Origin: Spizellomyces punctatus DAOM BR117
Taxonomy: Eukaryota
Assembly (NCBI GenBank): GCA_000182565.2
Contig: KQ257457.1
Length of the DNA stretch: 64,000 nucleotides
Reading direction: 5' to 3' (one strand)
Below the pieces are notes generated by a model. It had not been told where the DNA came from. It was given only the letters and a program-made list of their open reading frames with translations, and did not search any database. Shown piece by piece: positions 1-59,477 of this stretch. The translations under genes were made by a program, and so were the position numbers. Within the stretch, counting starts at the first letter, position 1; each line of letters opens with the position of its first letter.

Positions 1-112
1 GCCCCACAATCCACTGGCGGACATCGTCGAAAGGCCGTCAGAAACCAGAAATGCAGATGCGGAGGAGCTCTGTAAACACCTCGGCGACCTAAACATCCTT
101 ATCCGAGATCTG

Positions 113-1771
113 ATGATCGAAGCCCAGGATTCGCAGAAAAGATATTACGATTTATCGCGACGACATTTGGAGTTCCGGAGAGGAGATAAGGTGCTTCTGA
201 GCACGAAAAACCTAGCAGGGTATGAGTCCAAGATCGCTCCGAAATGGCTGGGACCAGTCACGGTGACCGACTGTAACCCTCTCCGCGACAACTACGAGTT
301 AAAACTGCCAGACAAGATGAGACGACTTCATCCATGGTTTCACATATCGAAATTACGTCCGTACCAGAAGCCTGTCGACGCCGAAACTGAGGAAAAGGTC
401 GCGGAAGCACAAGCGGAGGATTCCGACGCTTCAGATGGCGAGTTTGAAGTGGAAGCGATAGTAGACCATCGAACCAGGCGCGGAAAACGTCAATTTCGAA
501 TACGTTGGTCCGGATACCCACCCCATGAGGATACCTGGGAACCAGAGGAAGCCCTAACAGAGGCTTCCGAAGCCTTAGAAGAGTACTGGAGATCCAGAGC
601 TCCCACTAGCGCGCTAGTAGAGGACTCTTTGGTAGTCAGCCTTGCAGGCGACGCCCCGGAAGATACGGCTTATGCTTCCGACCACCAATGCTTCGCGGTT
701 TATCCGGACGATAGCTCACGTGATAATCACGCCCTCTCACCAGAAAGAAAACCAGTTTCGCGTGGCTTACCTCACCAGTCGAGAACGCCACACCAAGCCT
801 CCCGATCACGCTTACGCGCGTCCGAGCTGTCAAAATCAGCCGGCGACGACCTTAAAAGGACGCCCCTGCACGCTCCCCCTCTTTTTTCTTCTTCAACCGC
901 CCACGACCTACTTCCCTTACACACTCACTCTGCTTCGCAAACCCCTTCTATCGACACCGAAACTAAAACTTCCATTTCTAACACAATGAACACCGATCTC
1001 AGAGGACAAGCAGGAGTGAGCGTACCCTCCACGTACATGTCCGGCTACCCTTGGGAGGAAGACTCGGGCGACTTCGAGGCCGAGGGCGTGCTGGATCGCC
1101 TTGGGGTTGCGATCGCTACCTGGGTTCACTCCTGGGTTCATCAGCTTCGGACCAACCCCAACGCGCCGCTGCAGACTCCAGGGCATGAGTTTTGGCTGGG
1201 AGTCGACGCTCCGAAACCTTACGCGGTGGGCCAGCCCCTCACAAACCACATCGCGGACCCCTACAGCAAGGCCACCGATGGTGGTGAAGCAGCGGTCGGA
1301 ATAGTTGCTGACGCGAAAAAACCCGGAAAAAGAGGGCGCCCAGCTCCGTGCGCCGCTTGGCTCGACCGCGGGGTTCCCCAACACGAGGCGGGAAGCCGAA
1401 AAACGGCTCCGTTCACCGATTGGCCGAACGACGACGCCCACGAGTTTGCGTCCGCCGTCATTGAAGCAGCTAGGACGGTGCTCCTAAGGACGGCGAACGC
1501 AGCGGAAGCCTCTGCAAGGCTCACCAGACCCCGACATCACGAGCACGCGGAGTACCATTTCCGCGCGACAAACCTGAAAAGGGCCGCGGAGACCTTTACG
1601 GCCCTCTACGTAACCAGAACTGGCCCCGACGTGACCCCGGGTACCATCGTTCGTACCGCAACAGATCAAATCTGGTTTTGTTGCAACGTCAGTGGCCGTG
1701 CCAGTATCATCTGGGTCGTGAACCAAGATGCAGATGAAGCGGACCCCACAGATCCGGTACCGACCTGGTAA
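113..1771 (+). CDS. Retrotransposon Pol C-terminus (integrase SH3-like tail + chromodomain) with a ~390 aa in-frame extension; the reading frame begins upstream of the window
   Basis: 552 aa open frame; chromodomain at about 437-595; unrecognised sequence after it; stop about 50 nt before the PPT. Confidence 0.85.
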   Translation: MIEAQDSQKRYYDLSRRHLEFRRGDKVLLSTKNLAGYESKIAPKWLGPVTVTDCNPLRDNYELKLPDKMRRLHPWFHISKLRPYQKPVDAETEEKVAEAQAEDSDASDGEFEVEAIVDHRTRRGKRQFRIRWSGYPPHEDTWEPEEALTEASEALEEYWRSRAPTSALVEDSLVVSLAGDAPEDTAYASDHQCFAVYPDDSSRDNHALSPERKPVSRGLPHQSRTPHQASRSRLRASELSKSAGDDLKRTPLHAPPLFSSSTAHDLLPLHTHSASQTPSIDTETKTSISNTMNTDLRGQAGVSVPSTYMSGYPWEEDSGDFEAEGVLDRLGVAIATWVHSWVHQLRTNPNAPLQTPGHEFWLGVDAPKPYAVGQPLTNHIADPYSKATDGGEAAVGIVADAKKPGKRGRPAPCAAWLDRGVPQHEAGSRKTAPFTDWPNDDAHEFASAVIEAARTVLLRTANAAEASARLTRPRHHEHAEYHFRATNLKRAAETFTALYVTRTGPDVTPGTIVRTATDQIWFCCNVSGRASIIWVVNQDADEADPTDPVPTW

Positions 1772-11728: not shown

Positions 11729-14305
11729 ATGCCACAAGCTGCCACAATGAGTCCTCCCAAGGCCACGCCTGGATGGCTAGCAGATCTAGACACGCTGCGC
11801 AAATCTTCCAGGTCTCTCTTTCCAAAAGCGACCTCAACCTCGCAGCCTCGTTCAAAGCCGTCAAATGGGTACACTACGTCTGCGGGTGCTATCTGTCATG
11901 GGAGAGTGAACGATCTGGAATCCATGGTTCCCCCTCAGTGGTGGCAAACCGTTTTTGCGGATGCAATGTACCTGAAGACTGATGGAGATGTTGTTGAAGA
12001 TCCGGACATCACGAAAGAAGAGGTGGGACTCCTTGAAGCTGACAAGGGAATACAAAGCATCCTCCTGAGGGGGTCTGGAAAGGCGCATGAAGGTGAGCAG
12101 CGGAACACCATGCATTGGACAAATGACGAATTAGACTGGCATGCGACTAGTTTTGCGCCGCGTCGTCGATCATCGCTTCGCTCAAATACATATCAACCAA
12201 CTCTCTTCCGTTGCCTATCCGCTTCTCGTTACAACTCGTCTAGGTCGACCTGCACGGATTCTCGATCTATGCTGTGGACAAGGGCGACACGTGCTTCAAC
12301 TCGCCAAGGATTACCCACACCTTTCACTACACGGCCACGATCAGTCGTCATACCTGATATCCCTGGCTCAAGAACGGGCCGCTTCGCAGGGTTTGGCTGC
12401 AAAAACTGTTTTCACGGTTGGAGATTGTCGCCAGATTCCATATGCGGATGAGAGTTTTGACCTAGTCGTGGTGATGGGTAACTCATTTGGCTACTTTTCC
12501 GATGAAGATGGCGATCGCGTCGTTTTGAGGGAGATATTTCGTGTATTGGCTCCCGAAGGCCGGATGGTACTAGACTTAACGGACGGTGACTATATGAGAC
12601 AGAATTTTGCAGAGAGGAGTTGGGAATGGATTGATGACACAACTTTCGTCTGCCGAGAAAGGCAGCTCAGTAAGGATGGGCTAAGGTTGAGCTCAAGAGA
12701 AGTGGTCACATTGACCACCAAGGGAGTCATTCGGGATCAGTTTTACCGAGAGAGGCTCTACGGAAAGAAAGAGGTAGAAACGCTGGTGCAAGATATAGGA
12801 TTTAGCATCGTCGTCGATGAGAAGGAATCGGATCCAATCACGCTGGGGAAAGAGCTCAGCAAGCGAAAGGAGGACCTCGGCATGATGGAGCAGCGGGTGC
12901 TGGTAACTGCCGTCAAGCCTGCTCGCCAACTTAATGGGGACACACATGTGCTTCACTTGACCAATGGCACGCACCCTGTAATGGCAAAGTCGAATGGACT
13001 CCACCACCATAGTCATGGATTTTCAAATGGCCTAAGGACCAACGGCGAGCATACGAACCTGCCTGTTGACACTGCGGTGGCAAGTGGGTACCCGCATGGT
13101 NNNNNNNNNNNNNNNNNNNNNNNNNNNNNNNNNNNNNNNNNNNNNNNNNNNNNNNNNNNNNNNNNNNNNNNNNNNNNNNNNNNNNNNNNNNNNNNNNNNN
13201 AAGTCAACGCTGTTTTGGGAAACTTAACAATACTTGGAATCCCGAGGATATTGATACCCGTCGCAAGCTCCTTGTAGCTCTAAACGACCTTGGATACCCC
13301 CCAAGTGCGGTGAAGGTTTTGGACCGCCACGACCTTTACATACGCGAACTAAGTCAACGGCCTCCACAATTTGTTTTCAACCTTTGTGATGAGGGTTTCG
13401 ACAATGATGCTCTGAAGGAGCTTCATGTTCCAGCACTCCTCGATATGCTTAAAATTCCGTATTCTGGTGCAGGTCCGAACTGTCTAGCTTATTGCTACGA
13501 CAAAGGTCTCGTAAACCGAACTGCTGCCGCAATCGGAGTTCCAACCCCCAAGGAAACCTTTTATTTTGCGGACACAGCAACACCGGCTGTCCATGACATC
13601 TCGAACTTGCATGCGGTTATATCTAGAGAGATTGGCTACCCCGCTTTCATCAAGCCAGTGAAAGGTGACAATTCTCTGGGTATTACCGGCCGCTCGATCG
13701 TTAACAATGAGAAAGAATTGGATGCCTATATGGCCGAGCTGCGGTCAATTGGTATACGAGACGTCCTCGTACAAGAGTATCTGCAGGGTCCCGAATATGG
13801 AGTTGGAATGATCGGTAATCGCGAGACTGGATTCCATTTCTTTCCGATTCTCGAAGTAGACTATAGCCAGATAACGGCCAGGTCCCTTCCCCCAATCCTG
13901 GGATATGAGAGCAAATGGGACCCAAGCTCCCCCTACTGGACTGACATCACGTACAAGGAGGCGACGACGCTGTCAGCAAAATCGGTGTCAGACTTGCACG
14001 AATGGTGCATCGCTCTCTGGGATCGCTTCGAGTGCCGAGATTATGCAAGGTTTGACTTCCGGTCGGACAAACCGAATGGAACCATCAAACTACTTGAAGT
14101 CAATCCAAACCCTGGGTGGTGCTGGGACGGAAAATTAGCATATATGGGTAAGCTAGAGGGATTAGCGTATCGAGATGTCGTGGGAATGGTGCTTAAATCA
14201 GCTTGGGAGAGATTGAATGGGACTCCAACAAGCTCGAAAGCAAACGCGAATGGTCAGACGCATTCGGAAAATGGGGAGACTTGCGCATTGGTTGATGCAG
14301 CATAA
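11729..14305 (+). CDS. Class I SAM methyltransferase fused to a D-Ala-D-Ala ligase-like ATP-grasp domain (spans the N gap)
   Basis: WWQTVFADAMYLKTDGDVVED; ILDLCCGQGRH; VMGNSFGYF; then FVFNLCDEG, LDMLKIPYSG, YPAFIKP, VLVQEYL, RDYARFDFR and LLEVNPNPG. Confidence 0.85.
13101..13200. other. Assembly gap (100 N)
   Basis: Run of N. Confidence 1.
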
Positions 14306-16730: not shown

Positions 16731-17688
16731 NNNNNNNNNNNNNNNNNNNNNNNNNNNNNNNNNNNNNNNNNNNNNNNNNNNNNNNNNNNNNNNNNNNNNN
16801 NNNNNNNNNNNNNNNNNNNNNNNNNNNNNNNNNNNNNNNNNNNNNNNNNNNNNNNNNNNNNNNNNNNNNNNNNNNNNNNNNNNNNNNNNNNNNNNNNNNN
16901 NNNNNNNNNNNNNNNNNNNNNNNNNNNNNNNNNNNNNNNNNNNNNNNNNNNNNNNNNNNNNNNNNNNNNNNNNNNNNNNNNNNNNNNNNNNNNNNNNNNN
17001 NNNNNNNNNNNNNNNNNNNNNNNNNNNNNNNNNNNNNNNNNNNNNNNNNNNNNNNNNNNNNNNNNNNNNNNNNNNNNNNNNNNNNNNNNNNNNNNNNNNN
17101 NNNNNNNNNNNNNNNNNNNNNNNNNNNNNNNNNNNNNNNNNNNNNNNNNNNNNNNNNNNNNNNNNNNNNNNNNNNNNNNNNNNNNNNNNNNNNNNNNNNN
17201 NNNNNNNNNNNNNNNNNNNNNNNNNNNNNNNNNNNNNNNNNNNNNNNNNNNNNNNNNNNNNNNNNNNNNNNNNNNNNNNNNNNNNNNNNNNNNNNNNNNN
17301 NNNNNNNNNNNNNNNNNNNNNNNNNNNNNNNNNNNNNNNNNNNNNNNNNNNNNNNNNNNNNNNNNNNNNNNNNNNNNNNNNNNNNNNNNNNNNNNNNNNN
17401 NNNNNNNNNNNNNNNNNNNNNNNNNNNNNNNNNNNNNNNNNNNNNNNNNNNNNNNNNNNNNNNNNNNNNNNNNNNNNNNNNNNNNNNNNNNNNNNNNNNN
17501 NNNNNNNNNNNNNNNNNNNNNNNNNNNNNNNNNNNNNNNNNNNNNNNNNNNNNNNNNNNNNNNNNNNNNNNNNNNNNNNNNNNNNNNNNNNNNNNNNNNN
17601 NNNNNNNNNNNNNNNNNNNNNNNNNNNNNNNNNNNNNNNNNNNNNNNNNNNNNNNNNNNNNNNNNNNNNNNNNNNNNNNNNNNNNNNN
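16731..17688. other. Assembly gap (958 N)
   Basis: Run of N. Confidence 1.
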
Positions 17689-39677: not shown

Positions 39678-43533
<3,856 letters not shown>

Positions 43534-44001
43534 GCTGTGGATGTGAGTTTCAAGGTGCAAAGGAGGGCGAGAATAGGACGAGGTGTCGTTGCTCGCAGTT
43601 TGTAAACCCCGCTGATCGTTGATACAGTGACGTTGAGAGCTCACTGACGAGCAATGGCAACGCGCGCAAAAGAAAGCTCGGTAGCCCCTATTGATGCTTA
43701 CGCTTGTGCCCTCTAACGTATCCCATCGCCCGTCAGAAGGGAGGAAATCCGGTGGTTGAACACAGCGTTGGGTAACTTGCGAAGCGGTCCACATCTTGCC
43801 TTGTGCACGTGATAATGTGGCATTGTTCACATAGGCCTCCCTACCTGGACTTTCGGCAGAAGGTATTGTGTAAATAATACTGCAGTGATGACAACAACAG
43901 CGCTGTTAATAGGGGTAGCTCTACATTGACGGATAGGAGAAAGCTCTGCACCGTGGTGGGTAGCCTCTAGTTGAGCTCACAATGGGGTTGAATATATCTT
44001 A

Positions 44002-44074
44002 TAGTGTAGAGGTGACAGAAACTGGCACTAGCTACTACACCAGGGAATAAACCGGCGACAACCGGTTCGGAAAA
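44002..44074 (-). ncRNA. Fanzor omegaRNA-like scaffold (stand-alone, ghost-type locus); predicted guide continues into about 43987-44001
   Basis: Minus strand reads TTTTCCGAACCGGTTGTCGCCGGTTTATTCCCTGGTGTAGTAGCTAGTGCCAGTTTCTGTCACCTCTACACTA. It closely parallels the SpuFz1 omegaRNA as recalled (TTTTCCG..CCGGTTGTCG..CGGTT..TCCCTGGTG...GCTAGTGCCA...CACTA). Stems AACCGG/CCGGTT and TGGTGTAG/CTACACTA are directly visible. Confidence 0.75.
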
Positions 44075-44083
44075 GCTAACTAA

Positions 44084-44590
44084 CTAAGCTACTACTAGGC
44101 AATTATACACGCAATACGTAACGGTTGGTTTTAACCGGATAACTGCCCACCACCACACGCGGTCGCCTTGATCCAGAACTCTTGATGGCATTGAAGCCAG
44201 ACTCTTGCATCCAGGAGCGAATCGACTGGGCAGCGTCACAAGCTGGAGGATTTTCAGTGACAAGGCTTGGAGACTAAAACTGCATGTCAGAAGATGACCT
44301 GATGACAAGAAATGCAAGAAATGCCATCGATACATACCAACCAAGCTCAACTAATGTGGCAGCATAATAGTAGGTTTTGTTATCGGATCCGATTGGTTGC
44401 CACTGGTTCTGATCACGGTTGCTGTCGGGCGGTCGAGGTCTTCGGCACCACCACATCTGCATGCTCATGGGTGACCGAGTTGCAATGAGGTTGCAATGTG
44501 GGTCGCAATGAGCATTTGTGCAGATGGAGAGTCAAGGATGGGTAAAGAGGAAAGAGGGAAGAGGCAGCAAAAGGCCCCCTTTTATAGACC
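44084..44590 (-). other. Putative short spliced Pol II transcription unit directly upstream of the omegaRNA-like scaffold
   Basis: TATAAAA at about 44580-44586, a pyrimidine-rich leader, and a GTATGT...CTGAC...TAG intron (44337-44274). Splicing joins two short ORFs into one of about 106 aa that ends 10 nt before the scaffold. Confidence 0.45.
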
Positions 44591-45224
44591 TTCGGCATGC
44601 GCCTCACCGCAGTTTAAAAAAAAAACATTACATGCATGCCACACTGCAGTTTGGAGAACATTAGCATGCATCCTTACCGCTTTGAGCGATAGATGGGGGT
44701 GCTGATTATGCGATATGATTAACCAGATTATCCGGATAATAATGGGTCTTAGTGCCATTTTCACCCGCGCAAAAGGCCATATTTACATGAAAAAGGTTTG
44801 TGTGAATACACAATGAATTGTGGTGTGCTACGATTGTGAGAGCCTGAACAAAGAACTGGAGCAGTGTATTCTCTTGTCATCAGATTTAGACATAGGCCAA
44901 CTGTCCAATTTCGCCTCGGGTATCAACAAGTTTATATTCCGTTGCAGATCCACTTCTATTTACACCTTTTACAAGGAAGGCACGGAACAAAACGTATACA
45001 GGTGAATGAATATGATGTGTAAGACTTTAACGCTCGCAAACCCCATGGTCTTGTCCAGACAACTGCGGGCGCACTGCTGGAGATTAATCAAGGAACAACC
45101 GTGCTCGTCGCACGGAAATTCTCCACAGGTGTAGTGCCACCAATGGTATTACCATCGCTCATAAGAGCGAGTCCTATCCGGAAAGCAGGCAAACTTGGTC
45201 CATATATACGCCGGCACACAACAC

Positions 45225-48200
45225 TCAGTCCAACTTGTTTACGTGTATTCCTCCCCGTGTATAGGGATGGTCCAACGACCAAATATTGCACCGCGAGATA
45301 CTGACCAGACGATGCGTCGAGTTATTGAACGGAACGGGTTGATCTCCTCCTTCCATACCTGCGCAATCCACACCATCTGCTGGTAAAGGGATAGAAATTG
45401 GGGTAGTTGTCAATGTCCTCAAGGTCTCAAAAAACTGCGCGGCGTCATCGGCAAATCTCGAACAATAGACGTGGTCCAGCCGACGAAACCGTTCACTCAC
45501 GGACCACGTCTCTACTGGAAAATCCGGTAATAAGCTTTTCAAAACATCTGGGCTCTTGGTCTCGCCGTTGGAAATCTCCTCTCCAGGTATAGGAATCATC
45601 GTAATTTGCTGACCACGGACGGGTATTTTGCCTCCGGCAGATGGAGACTCTACAATGGGGAGTACGGCGGTCTGCCTTGTAGTAGAGGCATCCTTTATAG
45701 CTGCAGCTGCGATTAGAACCTCGCAAGTACTGCCGCGGACTACCTCACCGCCCCCCACCCCTTCCCCCTGTTGATTACAGGGAAAAGACATGTTTTGTTC
45801 GACCAGTTGCCCAGCGTCATCCTTAACATTGGTAGACTGGTGAGATCTTGGCACTAATTTGGTCATCGCCAGTCCATCGCTTACATCGAGGGAGCCGTCC
45901 ACCTTTTCCACCGGTATCTTCACACTAGCATTTGAGCATCTCCGTTTGCTGCTTCGCTCCTCTCCGGGCTGTTCACTTGAATCCCGCTGCCGTTTATATG
46001 AACTGCTGGTCATTTCATTTACATTAGGTTCCATAGCCAATTCGGCCGTCAACGACAGTTTCGACTCTTTCTCAAAAGTAGAGTAGCTTGCAGCACTTGA
46101 AAATGAATCTCTGCGACTGTCCCCGCGACTTTGACTGCCGACTCCGGGTGACCGGCTCCGGCTCCGACGTGCTGCGTGCTGATAGCGGCGGTCGTGTGAA
46201 CGGTCACGAGAACCACTACGGCTGCGAGAACCTTCCCGAGACCTCGCGCGTCTGGCCCGGTCTCTATATGTATAGGAATTGCGCTCCCTGGATCGACTGT
46301 GCTCATAGCTATGGCGACGCCGAGTTCTGCTCCAACTTCTGTCTCTACTATGGTCGCGCCTATCACCCCGTCTCCGGTCCCGATCGCGCCCGCGGTCTCT
46401 TTCCCAGTCTTTCCTACGGTCGTGGACCTTCCCTTGTCCCTTGTCGGCGTCGTAATGAGTGTCACCGTCCGCGCTGTGCCGCTCGGCGTCGGCAATGCCA
46501 ATCAACTCACGGGAAGGTTCCATTTTTCTCACTGTTTCACCAACGGCATCGGACGAACGCCTCACGCGGCTCCTATCCCCGTACCCGTACATATCGTTGG
46601 ATTGTGCGGCATTTTCAGTTGCTAGTACCTCACGAATACTGTAAGGCTCCTTGAAAACAGCTTGTATCAGGACGTCATGGGAGCGGACATCTCGATCGCT
46701 CACTGATGATATATCAGAATAATGCGACCGCTTCATCGACAAGCCACTAAGGCCCACCGTGTGCGCTACATCGGATCCAATCTCAGAGTGCGTCTGGGTA
46801 TCATCTGTGTGGCTGCGATTCGCTGTTGAGTCGACGGGCCCGGGTATAGGACGTCTGTCCCCCTTAAAGGTTTCCTGGGATTTGCGCAAAAATCTGCCCG
46901 ATGAGACAATGCTGCTTTCAGTACTACCGATGTCATTCTCATCTCTACGCCTCAATCGATCGGAGCCGGGTGCTTCTGGATCGGGAGGTTGAGATGCATC
47001 ATGGCGGCTTGAAACATCGCTCCAAGCTGGAACAGAGGTCGACTGTCCTGGGTGCCGGGCGTCCCCATTGACTCCTCTAGAAGAACGCGCATATAGCGGT
47101 GACTCTCGCGGAGGGGCCCAGTAGGTTCGTTGGCGGTCTCCGTGAGCTCCATATGGGTGGTACTTCTCAAAATTGTCATATGCCCGACGTGGTGTGTTGT
47201 ACCGGACGTCATGTCCGGGATGAGCCCGCCCGTCGCCAAAGTGTGGTGCAGTCCACGAATGATTCGAATAGTGTCGTCGGTCAAACTCATGGAGGGGTAC
47301 CCACCTGTCTTGGTCCCAAAGACTATCAGATATAGGGTCCCACCAAGTTTGACGTGGTTCATCCCAGACACTCCGGTCGTCTGCAGCTCCTACGTCGGCG
47401 GAGGAAGGGTCACGTCCTGTCACAGCCGCTGAGGACTGGGAATCTTGTGTAGAGTCCATTCCGGATTTTGAAGCGGTTGGTGCCGACTTTGCACCGGTCA
47501 CAAGAAAATTGGTCTCCGACTTTCTACCTCCTTTTTGCTGCTTTATTCTCTCCTTGCATTCATATTCATGCCATGATCCTTCTACGACTGGTAAACTATA
47601 GAGAATACTCAGCATACCCGATAGAACATAAAATACCAAGATAACTCACTCCTTTGGAAGGCATGGGGTCGGTGTCTCTGTTTTGAAGAATGGATGATCC
47701 AACGCCTCCTTCGCGCTCGGTCTCTGCGATGGATCATAGGAGAGAAGGCGGGAGATGAGATCCACAGCCATTGGTGTAACCGGAGTGACGGCTCTAACAG
47801 ACATTATGAACTGTTAGCGACCAGTAACATCGCTGACAATGTGTTCAGCCTACTTTTCATTCAGATAGGTTTCCAGCCGCCTTGGATACTTTTGCTTTGG
47901 TTTCAACCACATCTTGGACCAACTGTGGTCCATTTTGCGATAAAGCTGCCAGTTCTCGTCCGTAGGATGACCACAAATGCTGAAGATGCGTTTCACTTGT
48001 TCGGTGTCCCGGCCCCGAGAGGTGTGGAAGATGGGATACTTTATAAACATCTCTGCAAGAATGCACCTATCGAGTGAAGAATAACTTGGTAATTAGTGCA
48101 CGCCCAAGATCTTTCAGAAAGAATCATACATACCCCGCACCCCACATATCAATTTCATATCCATAGTGCAACTGGCCGAGTAGCACCTCAAGAGGTCGAT

Positions 48201-50328
48201 ACCAGACGGTACACACGCGATTAGTATATCCTTTTTCATCATAAACATCCTTCTCCCTGGCAAAGCCAAAGTCCGCAATTTTCAACTCTCCGCGATTATT
48301 CAACAGAAGATTCCCCACTGACGATACAAAAATGAATGCAAAGAGAATAAGGCAGCCGAGTTGAGAACAATATCGTCTTCTGCGAGACTAGCGAAAACTA
48401 ACCTTTCAGGTCCCGGTGCATGACGCCTTTAGAATGCATATAATGCATTCCTTCGAACATTTGCTTTGCTATGCATTTCAAATGATTGAGTTTATACAGT
48501 TGCTTGTCGGGATGGTGCTGCATAAGGCCAGCAAGGTCATGATCCATGTATTCCAGAATCATATACTCATGCACCTCCTGTCCGAATGCTTGTGCTGTAA
48601 TAATCGGATTACTAAGACAATCTACCGTGTTGGCGACTAGAGAGCTTGTCCTTGATGCGATCCTCACTTACGCTTATCATATGATACCATCCCAATACAT
48701 TGGAGGATATTCCGGTGTCGATATTTCATGAGAAACCGAAACTCTCGCATGTTGGGCACAGTGAACTTGCGGACGGGATGAGTTTTGATAAGCATATTGA
48801 GGAACAAAAGGACAGTTGCTCCGATCAGACTCACGATATTATTCTTTCCTTTCTTGTCGATAATTTGTTTAAGTGCCACAATTTGACCGTTATGTTTGAT
48901 TCGTGCCTTGAATACAGTGCTGCAAATTGTATGTGCAATTTTTGGGGCGTCAAGCGGATGAATGGATCCAAGTTCGGACAATAACCAACATACCCAAAAG
49001 TCCCCTGGCCAATCTGCTCCAGGTTTTGAAAATGTGCTTCAATGCTTCGGTAAATTTTGAATTTGTCGAATTTAGGAGGGCTTTTCAAATCCCTCGGGAC
49101 GGCATTTGGCTGTCTCTCTTTGACCACTGCCGCGTTAACCTTGCGTAGCTCCTTTCCTGCCGATGAACGACCAGTAAGTAGGGTAGTCTGTGTGGATACC
49201 AGTAGGTCATGCTCCGGAGATTGGCGAGAAATAGAGGCCGCTTCCGATGTGGCACCATGTTGCGCTACAGACCCAGGCGACTTTTTTTCTTCAAAAGATC
49301 TCTTCCTGATGGCCTGACTCCTGAGTCTCTCGTGCTTCCCGCCCGGATGAGTAGACTCAATTTGTGTATTGGACGAAACAGATTGGCGAGCAGATGGTAA
49401 TGAATCGGCCATTCCAATGATTGGCCCATTCGCAGATGGTGATGGTCGCGGCGGCTCTACATCCTCATGAGGAGCCAGCTGATCGTCGTAATGTGACAAT
49501 AACACCCCTGATAGAGGGACGCTCGCTCCTGATTCAGTATTGCTCTCCCGTTTTGAGGTTTCCAACCCTGATGACCGCGATACCCTTCCTGATCCTGCTA
49601 CGGAGGACAGAAATGGGGTACTCTTGGCGCCCATTTTTGGCTGGCTATCGCCTGAGCGCGATGTCTCTGCTTCCAATTGTGACAAAGTAATCCTCTTGTG
49701 AGCTCGACTCCGTCCAGGCGTTGCACCGATTGCAAAAGAGAGCTTCTTTGATTTCTCCGTGGCCTTCACGTTAGTCTCGGAGACATTTTTGGCGCTGCCC
49801 AACGGCTGTTTCACTGTGGGGCGAGGGCTTGTTGAGTTGGGATCTACATCCATATTCTGGATATCGTCATAATGAGTGACATGCACTGGCAGCACATGAT
49901 CGGGAGTGTCGCTGCTTTTGAACTCTAATCCATTTGCTGTTTTAATTGATGGATTGTTGAAGAATAATCACGAAAAAACAAAATGCAGCAGGCATAGTGA
50001 ACGAACCAGCCTCCTTCTCTTGGCCCGAAACCATTATGATTTGATTTGTGGCTCGCTGTTGTGACTGAGACGATTGGAGAGGAATTGTCCCTTCAACGAG
50101 ACACGATCCGCTCCGTCCTTCTTCGTCCATTGGGAGATCCTGCACAGATGTATCACTTCCATTTGGATCCCGGGAGTGCAGAGTACGAGTACTCCTTTCC
50201 AAGCCCTTCAGTCCTTCGGCATTCGCAACTTCGGGCGCTGTAGGCTGTACAGGATGAGGAGTAGGGTGCTCAAAATGAATTTCTGCAGGGACCAGTGTCT
50301 CAAGGTCTTCGGGATAGACGCCTGCCAT
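45225..50328 (-). CDS. Transcriptional cyclin-dependent kinase (CTK1/CDK12-like) with a long RS-rich C-terminal tail, multi-exon; start uncertain
   Basis: [67 protein letters not shown] dipeptide tract at about 46150-46400. Confidence 0.85.
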
Positions 50329-54974: not shown

Positions 54975-57900
54975 CTACCCTCTCGTTCTACCCACGCTTC
55001 CCTTCAGACCCTGCCAGGCATCAAGCCTCATCATTGGCTCCCCACCTATGGGCGGCTTCTCTAGAAATCCAATCTCCACGAAGTATCCTAAATACAGTCC
55101 CATCAGCTCATTCATACTCTTGCATACCACCCCGCCGGGCCTCTCTTCCAGTACTTGTTTCACGTGGCTATCATCCAGCTCCGCGCTCTTGGTACTCGTA
55201 GGCAAATCATCCAAAACAAAATGCAAAAGGGGATACAGTGCATTGTCAGCAGTTGAAAGTGTAAGGTCCATCAATGCAGTTCGCCAATGGATGTAGTCCA
55301 CAGGCACGAGAGTGTAACCTTTGCGCACCAAATGACCAAACATGTCATCGTATTTGAAGCGGTCTGAATTATGCATGTGGAAGACACCTAGAGCGAGTGA
55401 AGTCGGTGTCGACGCTACTTCAGCGATTGCACCCGCAACGTAGTCCACTGGGCACATGTTGACAAGATTTGCAATACGTGGCACTTTACCGAGTTGAATG
55501 CAGCCTTTGACCAGTCGCCACAAGAAATCATCGGTGTTTCCAACTCCGGTAGTAGAGTCACCCACAATATACCCTGGTCGGATGATAGTCGCCGGCACAC
55601 CTCGTTCGCGTGCTATCATAATCAGCTTTTCGGACACCCACTTAGTCTGACCGTAACCACTACGCAATCCTTTTCTCGAGCCTTCGAGATCGTCAGTTTC
55701 AAGAACCTTCCCTTTTTCTCCGAGCTCAAGCTTGCGCATATAATGCTCGGTATCCAATACGGCGGTGGAAGATACAAAGTGGAGAGGCTTAAGGTGATGC
55801 CGTGTAGCCAGTCGTAAAGATTCCAACGTGCCGAGGACATTGGGTGCTCGGAGTTTATGATAGGGGTACACCCAGTGAACTAGCGCTCCATTGTGAACAA
55901 TCACGTCTACGTCCGTGGACAGATATTCCCATTGCTCTTCTGACACACCCAGGCGCGACAACGCAAGGTCACCACAGATAGCCTCCACCCGGTCGGCTGT
56001 CAACCACTGGTCTTCCCATACAAGGTGCCGTTCGCCATTGTCTCGTATTCTTGCCAATGCGTCCTGAGGGGTTTTAGCTCTGACAAGAGCAATCACTCGA
56101 CTATTAGGGAATCGCCTCAACAGCGCACCGAGAATGAAAGCACCCAAAAATCCTGTCGCCCCAGTCAAAAAAAACACCGGACGGCCAACGGGCAGTCCCT
56201 CCTTAATCGGAAAATCAAACTGCGGTAGGCCAGTTGCGGAGATCGCCGGATCATCCAGCGCATCCAAATCAGCAGCGTAATCTACCTCTTCCTCCTCCTC
56301 AACCGCTACCTGCTCACCGGCTCCTCTTTCGGTCTTCCCACTCTCATTACCAATCATCCGCAAGTCGCCACCACGAATGAAATCTACTTCCTTTGCCATC
56401 CCTCTAACTGTGGGCTCTCTATATACAATGCTAAGAGGGACTTCGACCGCCAGTGTCTTACGAACTTCGAAAACAAGCCGTGTCGCTAAAATAGAATGTC
56501 CGCCCAAATCAAAGAAATTATCATCAATTGGAATGCTCGTGGATGGTCTTCCAAGTACGTTTGACCAGATATCACGAATGCCCAGCTGAATGGGCGTGAG
56601 TATATTGTCTTCACCAGTTGCAGGAGCGGCCGCAGTAAGAGCGGTGTCTGGGAAAGGAAGAGCGTTCTTGTCGACTTTACCGTTGGGCGTCAAAGGCATT
56701 CGCTTCAACGGAAATATCACTTTGCAACGAATGGTCCATTAAAATCCGTCGCCAATTTAGACTGCTACTATGCGTACTCACCTTTCGGTACAGCATATCC
56801 CGGTAGCTTTGTCTTGAGGTATTCTCGCACGTCCTTGATAAACGCTGCCACATCAACATCTGCATCCAGTGGAACGATGTAACTGACCAGAGTCTTTTCC
56901 TCATCCTTGTCACGTCTGACTAATGTCACATTCTCACGAACATTGGAATGTTGACTAAGATGAGTGTCAATCTCCTTTAACTCGATCCTGAATCCTCGAA
57001 TTTTGACTTGATCGTCAGCACGTCCTGTGCACTCTACAGAACCGTCAGGGCGGTACCTCCCAAGATCGCCAGAACGATACATCCTGTCACGTGGTCCCTT
57101 GTAATAAGGCAGGTTACGGTCAGGTTCAGGTCCCGATGGATTGAAAGGATTTGGGACAAATTTTTGGGCGCTGGCTTCGAGGTCAAGATATCCTTCTGCT
57201 AAGCCTCCGCTGCGGACATAGATTTCGCCGACCTCTCCAATACCACAAAGTAATCCTGAGTTATTGACTACCAGTAGCTGGACATTTTTCATGCCCTTTC
57301 CTGCCGGCATAATATCTTTCTGCTCAGAAAGGAACCCGGGGTTCAACGACGTAGGTGGAATGTCAAGATACGATACAGCACGCTGGGTCTCGGTCGTGCC
57401 GTACATGTTGATAACATGGGTATTCGGTGCCAAGTACTGGAGACGGAGGACATCTCGCTTCGTCAGAACGTCCCCCACAAAGAACGCATTGCGAAGCGTA
57501 GGAATTGGGTGGGTTGCGTTAGCGGACAATAGCTGACCCATGGCAGGGGTGAGATGAGTGACCGTAATCCCATGGTGAGCCATCCATTCTGCCAACCGGC
57601 CAGGCGTGCCAATGTCTTCCGCTGTTGGGATTCGCAGCTGTGCACCGAGGAATAATGGTGTAAAGACTTAGCACTCCGTTAGCAATGCTTTGCACTTCAG
57701 TAGCAAAGTAAATTTGTCGCTACTTACTATCGCGTTGAATTGGGTCATGTGCAATCCCACTCAACATTGTGAAGCGTTCATGCTCAGTTAATCCAAATTC
57801 GTGCCTCATCCAGGGATAAAAATGCGTCAATGAAAAATGACGACCTTTGACGCCTGAAAATGAAATCGCGTTATTCAAGGGAAATCAGAATCATGTGCGG

Positions 57901-59477
57901 GAATGTGTCCCAACAAACCTTTCGGTATGCCAGTACTTCCACTTGTGAAGCTCAACGTGCAGCCGCTGTCGGGGCCTAGCACTACAGCTGGTTCGATACT
58001 GGCATTGTTCTGATGGGGTGCTAGAACATCGGTGCCAGTGGAGCTGCCACCGACTAGAAGTCCATCGTCAAGAATCTCCAATGCAGGCACCTCACACTTG
58101 ATGTCAAGATTATCCTTAATATATCCACGGACATCTTCATGAAGCTCGCCAGCCTTACGTAGAATGACCAATCCGCGAGGTTTTGCGACCGAAAGGTAAA
58201 TATTCTGGCGAGACGGAGGATACGCTGGATCTATTTCACAGTCATTATGATGTCCATCCTTCAGCCAAGGGTCAACTATCCACCTACCAATGACACTGAA
58301 AATCGCTCCGGCTTTAAGGACACCCATGACGGCCACCACCAAGTCTACTCCTCTGTACGAATACAGCACTACAACATCCTCTCTCTCGATACCATTTGCA
58401 ATCAAATGGTGTGCAAGGACGTTCGAAGCTTCGTTAATCTGCTTGAAAGAGAACTCCCGCAGGTCTCCAAAAGTACTTCCTTGTGCCTCCCTACTTTCTA
58501 CGACGCATGTACGATCAGGGTGGCTTTTGGCGTTTCGGGCAAAAATATCGGTGATTGCTCCCTCAAATCTGTCCCATTCGAGATCAGCAGTGGGATCTGG
58601 GAGCAATGTTCTGCTTCGCGCAGTTAGGAGAGAAATGCGGCCAATTGTTGCCTGAGGATCTTCCGCAGCCGATTGGAGAACAAGTTGCAGTTGATCCAGC
58701 ATGTCCGTAATACGACTGTTCGAGAACAAGACAGTATTGTACACGACTCGGATCTCAATGGGAAGAAGACGGCGAAGGGTTGGGGCCTGGGAAATGAAAA
58801 TGGTGATGTCACATGTGGATGAAGTGGTCGTCGAAGATAAAGTGTCAGGAGTAGTGTCTGTCAGGTTGAAAAATCGGACTTTGAAGAGCGACTGCTGTTG
58901 TCCAGATTCGGGTCGGACGGAGGACGGTGCGAGCAAGTCATTCAATAACGCAGCAAATGGGATTTCGTCGGCTAAAGCATCCTCCTCGGCCTAAAACAGA
59001 TGTGCCATCAATGCAAGGCTGAAAGTTACTGGAAGCTCTGCGACTTTCTACCTTGAGAACAGTCTGCACTGCTGTTGCAATTGTATCATTATCAGTTAGT
59101 GGAAATCTTAATACTAAAGGATTTGAAGATCGAGAACTAGATCCAACGGTAATATCCTCCTCGCCAGTGTATTTGTGTAAAAGAATGGAGAAAGCAGCGA
59201 GCAAGATGGTGAAAGGGGAAATTGTCGACGACGATCCATGAGCGGCATGTTCTTCAGATACTGCTCCGTAGTTAGGCTTGATATTCAGCGAAAGCTTGAG
59301 AATCGCAAGAGAGATGGCCTCTGGAACTTGTAAGACCTGCTCCGCTTCCACAATGCGGTGTGGGATGGGCCGAGGATAGTCTGTTGGAAGTACAAGTTCG
59401 GTCAAGCTTGAAAGGCGCTCTTTCCATCGCGATATGAGGGTAGGACTGACGGGTTCGTCGGGTAGCGTCGCTCCCAT
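54975..59477 (-). CDS. LYS2: Alpha-aminoadipate reductase (adenylation-PCP-reductase), multi-exon
   Basis: [87 protein letters not shown]. Confidence 0.97.

Follow-up and report, generated by a model that had tools for sequence, protein, structure and literature searches.

A Fanzor omegaRNA scaffold at the right end of a very probable left-end-truncated ghost Spu-1 element upstream of PIK1 in Spizellomyces punctatus

Upstream of PIK1 in Spizellomyces punctatus lies a short minus-strand segment which an initial annotation described as a stand-alone, 73-nt scaffold of a Fanzor (Fz) guide RNA. The question raised by this locus is whether the segment is such a scaffold and, if so, what carries it. 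In the 64-kb stretch of DNA that was analysed (the window), the segment very probably forms the omegaRNA module at the right end of a ghost Spu-1 element that is truncated on its left side (44002-44763, minus strand). Such elements are non-autonomous, Fanzor-less relatives of the Spu-1 DNA transposon of this fungus. The class of element is already known, as ghost Spu-1 loci have been published and functionally tested.

In the published account (Saito et al. 2023, PMC10432273), the SpuFz1 omegaRNA combines a 15-nt guide with a scaffold of 75 nt in which a 6-nt linker (A29 to C34) connects two stems, and the SpuFz1 structure was deposited as PDB 8GKH. The same paper reports 134 ghost loci in S. 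punctatus that have homologues of both terminal repeats and no Fz ORF. In these loci, an inner region of about 550 nt is conserved, a CA precedes the left repeat, and the 75-nt region at the right end resembles the region downstream of Fz. Scaffolds from four ghost loci edited with SpuFz1 in human cells, giving indels comparable to those of the extended canonical RNA. The unique ghost scaffolds number 126 (gst1 to gst126, 74-76 nt), and a 2026 study tested representatives of them (PMC13434818). The element itself was described as SPu-1 by Bao and Jurka (2013), who gave its repeats as 33 bp long and its TA duplications as putative, and no Spu-1 transposase has been found according to PMC10432273.

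The scaffold was delimited from its minimum free energy (MFE) fold, from the nucleotides named in Saito et al. 2023, and from contigs of two public runs (X10 and X13):

44002-44076, minus strand: omegaRNA scaffold, 75 nt, numbered from 44076

All of the motifs that had been listed for the segment are present on the minus strand, and the scaffold, read from 44076 to 44002, ends at 44002 in CACTA. Its 5' end lies at 44075/44076 rather than at 44074 as first proposed, since contigs with an identical scaffold extend to 44076 (X10) and 44079 (X13). Three stretches of the segment (14, 21 and 23 nt) occur once each in the 64-kb window, with chance expectations of 0.23, 0.00 and 0.00. In the MFE fold, which is a prediction from one sequence, stem 1 occupies nt 9-28, an unpaired 6-nt linker occupies nt 29-34, and stem 2 occupies nt 35-75 and contains a 3-nt bulge. 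In the published comparison, the distal part of stem 2 is where ghost and canonical omegaRNAs differ, and a 3-nt bulge marks the ghost forms (PMC10432273). The MFE of the 88-nt stretch that was folded was -24.1 kcal/mol, compared with a mean of -15.1 (sd 2.9) for dinucleotide shuffles (z = -3.10), and only 1 of 200 shuffles folded as well.

Searches of the general RNA collections did not assign the scaffold to a family. Rfam, applied to 43000-45200, left it unmatched and gave two weak matches elsewhere, far under their gathering scores, and ARAGORN found no tRNA. The scaffold strings had no match in the main texts of Saito 2023, Xu 2024 and PMC13434818, and a literature search with scaffold fragments matched no Fanzor paper.

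The comparison with the canonical SpuFz1 scaffold was limited to the 18 nucleotides that are named in the text of PMC10432273. These were used as a template at every position on both strands of the window, either unshifted or shifted by 1 nt after position 20 or 22 (639,200 placements in all). The top score, 15 of 18, was reached at the 44002-44076 locus alone. Position 1 then falls at 44075, and a single 1-nt gap is needed because the stretch between nt 20 and nt 29 is shorter by one nucleotide. The nucleotides in agreement are U5, C6, C7, U16-G20, A29, C32, C34, U35, G37, A72 and A75, and the locus also shares with the canonical RNA the 75-nt length, the two stems and the linker at nt 29-34. 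The locus departs from the canonical RNA in having C in place of G22, a region between nt 20 and 29 that is 1 nt shorter, and U40 and A70 in place of C40 and G70. As a window-wide test the template is weak, with 14 of 18 reached at two unrelated loci and about 0.2 chance placements scoring at least 15 by our binomial estimate (0.25 per position). The score is still informative at a locus that was chosen beforehand.

The exchange at nt 40 and 70 had been described as part of a change in both arms of a helix that keeps the pairing. For nt 40/70 this agrees with the published nucleotides, and U40 and A70 are paired in the predicted fold, whereas the accompanying change at nt 41/69 is one proposed in the initial annotation. 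Two facing CpG steps that both decayed to TpA would also explain the paired change. The 40/70 change is in any case a single historical event of a lineage, and is not evidence on this particular copy.

The scaffold does not stand alone. Contigs of four public runs (X1, X4, X10 and X13, of which X1 and X4 are DNA-like) were placed on 43300-45300, and they show the segment to be the right end of a repeat of about 762 nt:

44002-44763, minus strand: left-truncated, high-copy, non-autonomous element of the ghost Spu-1 type (contig depth and boundary)
44002-44031, minus strand: right terminal inverted repeat, about 30 nt, within the scaffold (repeat boundary; complementarity to the left remnant)
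44750-44763, minus strand: inner remnant of the left inverted repeat, with a 13-nt arm that is 92% complementary to 44018-44030
44274-44337, minus strand: inner segment of 64 nt that is missing in many sibling copies, a subfamily indel (contig joints)

A total of 204 X1 contigs and 365 X4 contigs were placed, and short contigs pile up by the hundreds between 44002 and 44763. The summed X1 contig depth was 75-368 per bin inside the element, compared with about 2 (X1) and 33-37 (X4) in the flanks, where four records of single-copy contigs showed no difference from the window. Over the scaffold, these depths would correspond to about 160 (X1) and about 3000 (X4) copy-equivalents, although summed depths are not copy numbers. 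The inner region (44077-44763, about 690 nt) was likewise covered by many multi-copy contigs. The right boundary of the repeat is sharp and falls exactly at 44002. An 88-nt X10 contig is identical to the window over 44002-44076, the 75-nt scaffold, and then continues into 13 letters of another flank; the RNA label of this run is guessed. A 131-nt contig of X13, a soil metatranscriptome, is identical over 44002-44079 and then continues into 53 unrelated letters.

The X13 contig, with its identical scaffold and different 53-nt flank, also indicates that the family is present in environmental RNA libraries.

These contig results already contradict one alternative, namely that two hairpins unrelated to Fanzor arose by chance upstream of PIK1. 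The missing Rfam family and the two unrelated places scoring 14 of 18 in the window agree with such a reading. On the other hand, chance hairpins would not be expected to sit at the sharp 44002 boundary of a high-copy repeat that has an inverted-repeat partner, to place the linker at exactly nt 29-34, to agree at 15 of 18 named nucleotides, and to fold with a z of -3.1. We consider a chance origin extremely improbable, and the omegaRNA module of a ghost Spu-1 element remains the preferred reading.

The left end of the element is incomplete. Seven X1 contigs from sibling copies continue past 44763 into a 15-nt motif, the outer part of the left repeat, and then into TG, read as CA on the minus strand. 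The sibling motif and 44750-44762 together make up the inverted counterpart of the right end. In the copy described here, 12 of the 13 nt of the left remnant are complementary to 44018-44030, and the right terminal repeat differs from the sibling left-end tip by 2 mismatches in 15. When the outer left 15-mer was searched for with up to 3 mismatches, the window gave three matches (1.46 expected). One was the right end itself, with 2 mismatches, and the others were at two unrelated sites; none lay near 44763. Because only the inner 13 nt are found and the outer 15-mer is absent near 44763, this copy appears to be truncated at its left end. Measured against the two repeats by which the published ghost loci were defined, the right repeat is complete and only half of the left repeat is present, so that the locus may fall outside that definition; the conserved CA is readable in the sibling consensus, and the left tip that would carry it is absent from this copy. 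The TA at both element ends, and a CATA target-adjacent motif (TAM) that spans the CA plus TA, fit the TA duplications described by Bao and Jurka (2013).

Sibling copies differ from this one in their interior. Joints that drop the inner segment run from 44273 to 44338 in three X4 contigs and from 44273 to 44342 in one X4 contig, and one X10 contig joins 44263 to 44342 with 11 letters between; siblings also vary by small indels inside the element. A blastn search of 43900-45300 against the window returned the self match and matches of 28 nt or less, and hence no second copy in the window. No joint skipping 44002-44763, as an empty site would give, was found in the four runs, which is not evidence of absence.

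Two stretches beside the element had their own coverage patterns. Beyond the truncated left end, 44764-44949 (186 nt) had no contig in X1 or X4, and single-copy depth resumed at 44950; this gap could reflect another repeat, a filter effect, or a difference of assembly or strain. On the other side, 43770-44001 had no X4 contig; neither this hole nor the one at 44774-44949 (X1 and X4) is interpretable.

The state of this copy raises the possibility that it is an inert transposon fossil, in which the scaffold is intact merely because the insertion is young, and which yields no stable small RNA and is not used by any Fanzor. The missing tip of the left repeat is in keeping with this. Furthermore, all placed X1 contigs differ from the window at seven inner sites (44131, 44441, 44471, 44527, 44528, 44593 and 44675), none of them in the scaffold. 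As a divergence of about 1% gives zero changes in 75 nt by chance, the intact scaffold is no sign of selection on this copy. Among the sibling contigs, the only variable scaffold site listed is 44054 (nt 23), where the variant changes a G-C pair to a G-U pair. We regard an inert fossil as a serious possibility, somewhat short of an even chance, and the evidence from RNA-labelled libraries that bears on it is given with the expression data below.

Fanzor coding content was sought both inside the element and across the window. In five inner frames of the element, Pfam gave no family at E<=0.001, and the two matches below E=1 were unrelated and under their cut-offs. PDB searches with four inner frames returned nothing SpuFz1-like, although that collection includes the SpuFz1 structure (8GKH) according to PMC10432273. 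Of the 27 window ORFs of at least 250 aa, 21 were scanned and none had a TnpB/Fanzor-type domain; the other six lie in or beside the run of N at 16731-17688. These results agree with the first description, in which no Fanzor ORF was near. The identification of the element as a left-end-truncated ghost Spu-1 rests in part on this absence of a Fanzor coding remnant in the element and of Fanzor-type domains in the 21 of 27 ORFs. Together with the fold layout, the 15 of 18 nucleotides and the high-copy, Fz-less repeat that ends at 44002, it bears out the original proposal that this is a ghost locus for the SpuFz1 omegaRNA, lacking Fanzor and taking its guide from the flank. Full-length Spu-1 loci have the Fanzor ORF upstream of the scaffold, whereas this locus has none. 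We conclude that the locus is a member of the published and tested ghost class, and probably a truncated member.

The neighbouring genes had been given as PIK1 and a CDK gene. PIK1 lies downstream on the same strand and was recognized by Pfam (PI4KB-PIK1_PIK, 5.3e-07; Pik1, 1.4e-08), with the likely ATG at 43533, 469 nt from the end of the element. The CDK gene was not recovered as the neighbour. The adjacent upstream frame, an 806-aa arginine/serine-rich ORF at 45225-47645 (minus strand), has no Pfam domain and no kinase domain, and the CDK label is supported only by a sub-threshold Pkinase match at 48664-49038 (E 0.0067; 16.3 bits, cut-off 31.7), 3.9 kb away. The RS-rich ORF and this match could be parts of a single kinase gene whose tail is RS-rich.

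The proximity to PIK1 suggests another alternative, in which the copy has been domesticated by the host as a guide-RNA or regulatory element for PIK1, immobilised upstream of an essential gene and supplying a promoter, or else a guide that serves the host. The shared strand, the 469-nt distance to the ATG and an internal TATA box (described below) agree with this idea, as does the truncated left end, which would leave the copy fixed in place. However, the scaffold has no differences from its siblings, and any transposon copy would show insertion between genes. Domestication is in our judgement very unlikely, and the locus is better read as a truncated ghost Spu-1 copy.

Other features of the window were recorded in passing. 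A frame cut off by the start of the window (2-1771, plus strand) is the integrase end of a Ty3/Gypsy retrotransposon, with Chromo and Tf2-1-like SH3 domains; Ty3 insertions are reported at some Fz loci (PMC10432273). The window contains N runs of 958 (16731-17688) and 100 (13101-13200). At 12135-14305 (plus strand), an ORF for a SAM-methyltransferase and one for a D-Ala-D-Ala-ligase-type ATP-grasp protein overlap or adjoin each other across the 100-N gap, a combination that is unusual in a fungus. At 54975-58990 (minus strand), AMP-binding, PP-binding and NAD_binding_4 (reductase) domains occur in consecutive frames, in what looks like an aminoadipate-reductase-like or NRPS-like gene.

The guide of the ghost RNA is expected in the flank just outside the right end:

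43987-44001, minus strand: predicted guide, 15 nt (sequence; published guide length)

SpuFz1 takes a guide of 14-15 nt from the flank and has a strict CATA TAM, any mutation of which abolishes cleavage (PMC10432273). At this locus the four nucleotides that precede the predicted guide are ACTA, not CATA. Within the window the guide 15-mer is unique at 0 mismatches and has three matches at up to 3 mismatches, compared with 1.51 expected.

Searches for guide targets in the window and in viral contigs gave nothing beyond chance. The window holds no other exact guide match. Viral contigs contained two exact matches to CATA plus the guide, at 29-31% G+C, and these likely come from the same or closely related viruses, as the 139 nt compared around each match do not differ between the two. 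We estimate 5-15 chance matches per 1e11 bases at 30-40% G+C, and the two viral candidates were set aside as being at chance level. The scaffold pattern itself had 0 matches in the viral contigs. In metagenomes, a two-motif scaffold pattern was found at eight loci; blastn at E<=1 against 43980-44800 returned nothing for seven of them and a 27-nt match at the pattern site for the eighth (L002), and all eight were taken as chance.

A possible internal promoter was noted in the sequence of the element:

44579-44586, minus strand: TATAAAAG box (TATA box), followed by a pyrimidine-rich tract

The canonical TATAAAAG box is internal to the element and stands some 500 nt upstream of the scaffold, for whose RNA it may be the promoter; the part of Saito 2023 cited here makes no mention of a promoter in ghost elements. 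A scan for bacterial-type promoters and terminators was discarded as irrelevant to a eukaryote. The X10 contigs cover only 44002-44507, which is downstream of the TATA box; such coverage would fit an internal start site, although the uncovered part proves nothing and the RNA label of X10 is guessed.

The same libraries bear on the possibility of an inert fossil. None of the placed contigs from RNA libraries joins the scaffold to the flank of this locus, so that its own junction is not represented, which is what an inert copy would give; contigs cannot show RNA ends, however, and absent contig cover proves nothing. Against inertness, the scaffold is letter-for-letter the same as in sibling contigs of the RNA-labelled libraries (X10 and X13), ghost scaffolds are reported to be active with SpuFz1 (PMC10432273, PMC13434818), and the TATA box has been kept in the element. 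For comparison, RNA species of 88-90 nt were reported at four Fz loci (PMC10432273).

If the truncated ghost copy is expressed, the published family suggests how it might work. The element would be transcribed, perhaps from its own TATA box (44586-44579), and the RNA would be trimmed to about 89 nt, comprising the 75-nt scaffold and 14-15 nt of flank (44001 to 43987). SpuFz1 made at a full-length locus could take up this RNA in trans, and the complex would cut DNA in which CATA is followed by the guide sequence, which describes the insertion site in its unoccupied state. Once occupied, the locus would be spared, because ACTA rather than CATA precedes the guide match there and any TAM mutation abolishes cleavage (PMC10432273). 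In a genome in which the site is occupied, the guide most likely has no target. The copy is probably unable to transpose, since the tip of its left repeat is gone.

A more far-reaching possibility is that this transposition-dead copy still makes a working omegaRNA from its internal TATA promoter, with a guide that matches only the empty site upstream of PIK1, and that it spreads or persists without a transposase, with Fanzor guided to cut the empty alleles, which are then repaired from the occupied allele. We consider this unlikely, if worth stating; were it true, the locus would be a small homing element that depends on a nuclease supplied in trans.

The recognition of this locus indicates that a true Fanzor guide-RNA scaffold can be identified from sequence alone by a reader without tools. 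To the published ghost class it adds a copy that lacks its left end and yet carries the same scaffold as its siblings, and a TATA box upstream of a scaffold. Both additions bear on a question raised by the authors who described the ghost loci, namely what role the ghost guides have in the fungus.

Among known systems, the IS200/IS605 TnpB omegaRNA overlaps the right end of its transposon and takes its guide from the flank, and as the TAM lies beside the left end, the RNA targets the empty site. The locus described here resembles this RNA, and the gene-less derivatives of such elements, in having a guide RNA at the right end with a flank-derived guide. It differs in that its element is eukaryotic, is bounded by terminal inverted repeats and has putative TA duplications (Bao and Jurka 2013), and the SpuFz1 omegaRNA has no pseudoknot (PMC10432273). 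The closest relatives are the ghost Spu-1 loci (PMC10432273, PMC13434818), which share with it a Fanzor-less repeat with terminal inverted repeats, a right-end scaffold of 74-76 nt with a 3-nt bulge in stem 2, a guide from the flank and, in its sibling copies, the CA before the left repeat. Unlike those loci, this copy has a left repeat from which the outer 15 nt, and with them the CA, are missing, and it measures about 762 nt, compared with roughly 610 nt (about 550 nt plus two 30-nt repeats) in PMC10432273. It also carries the 64-nt inner segment that many of its siblings are missing.
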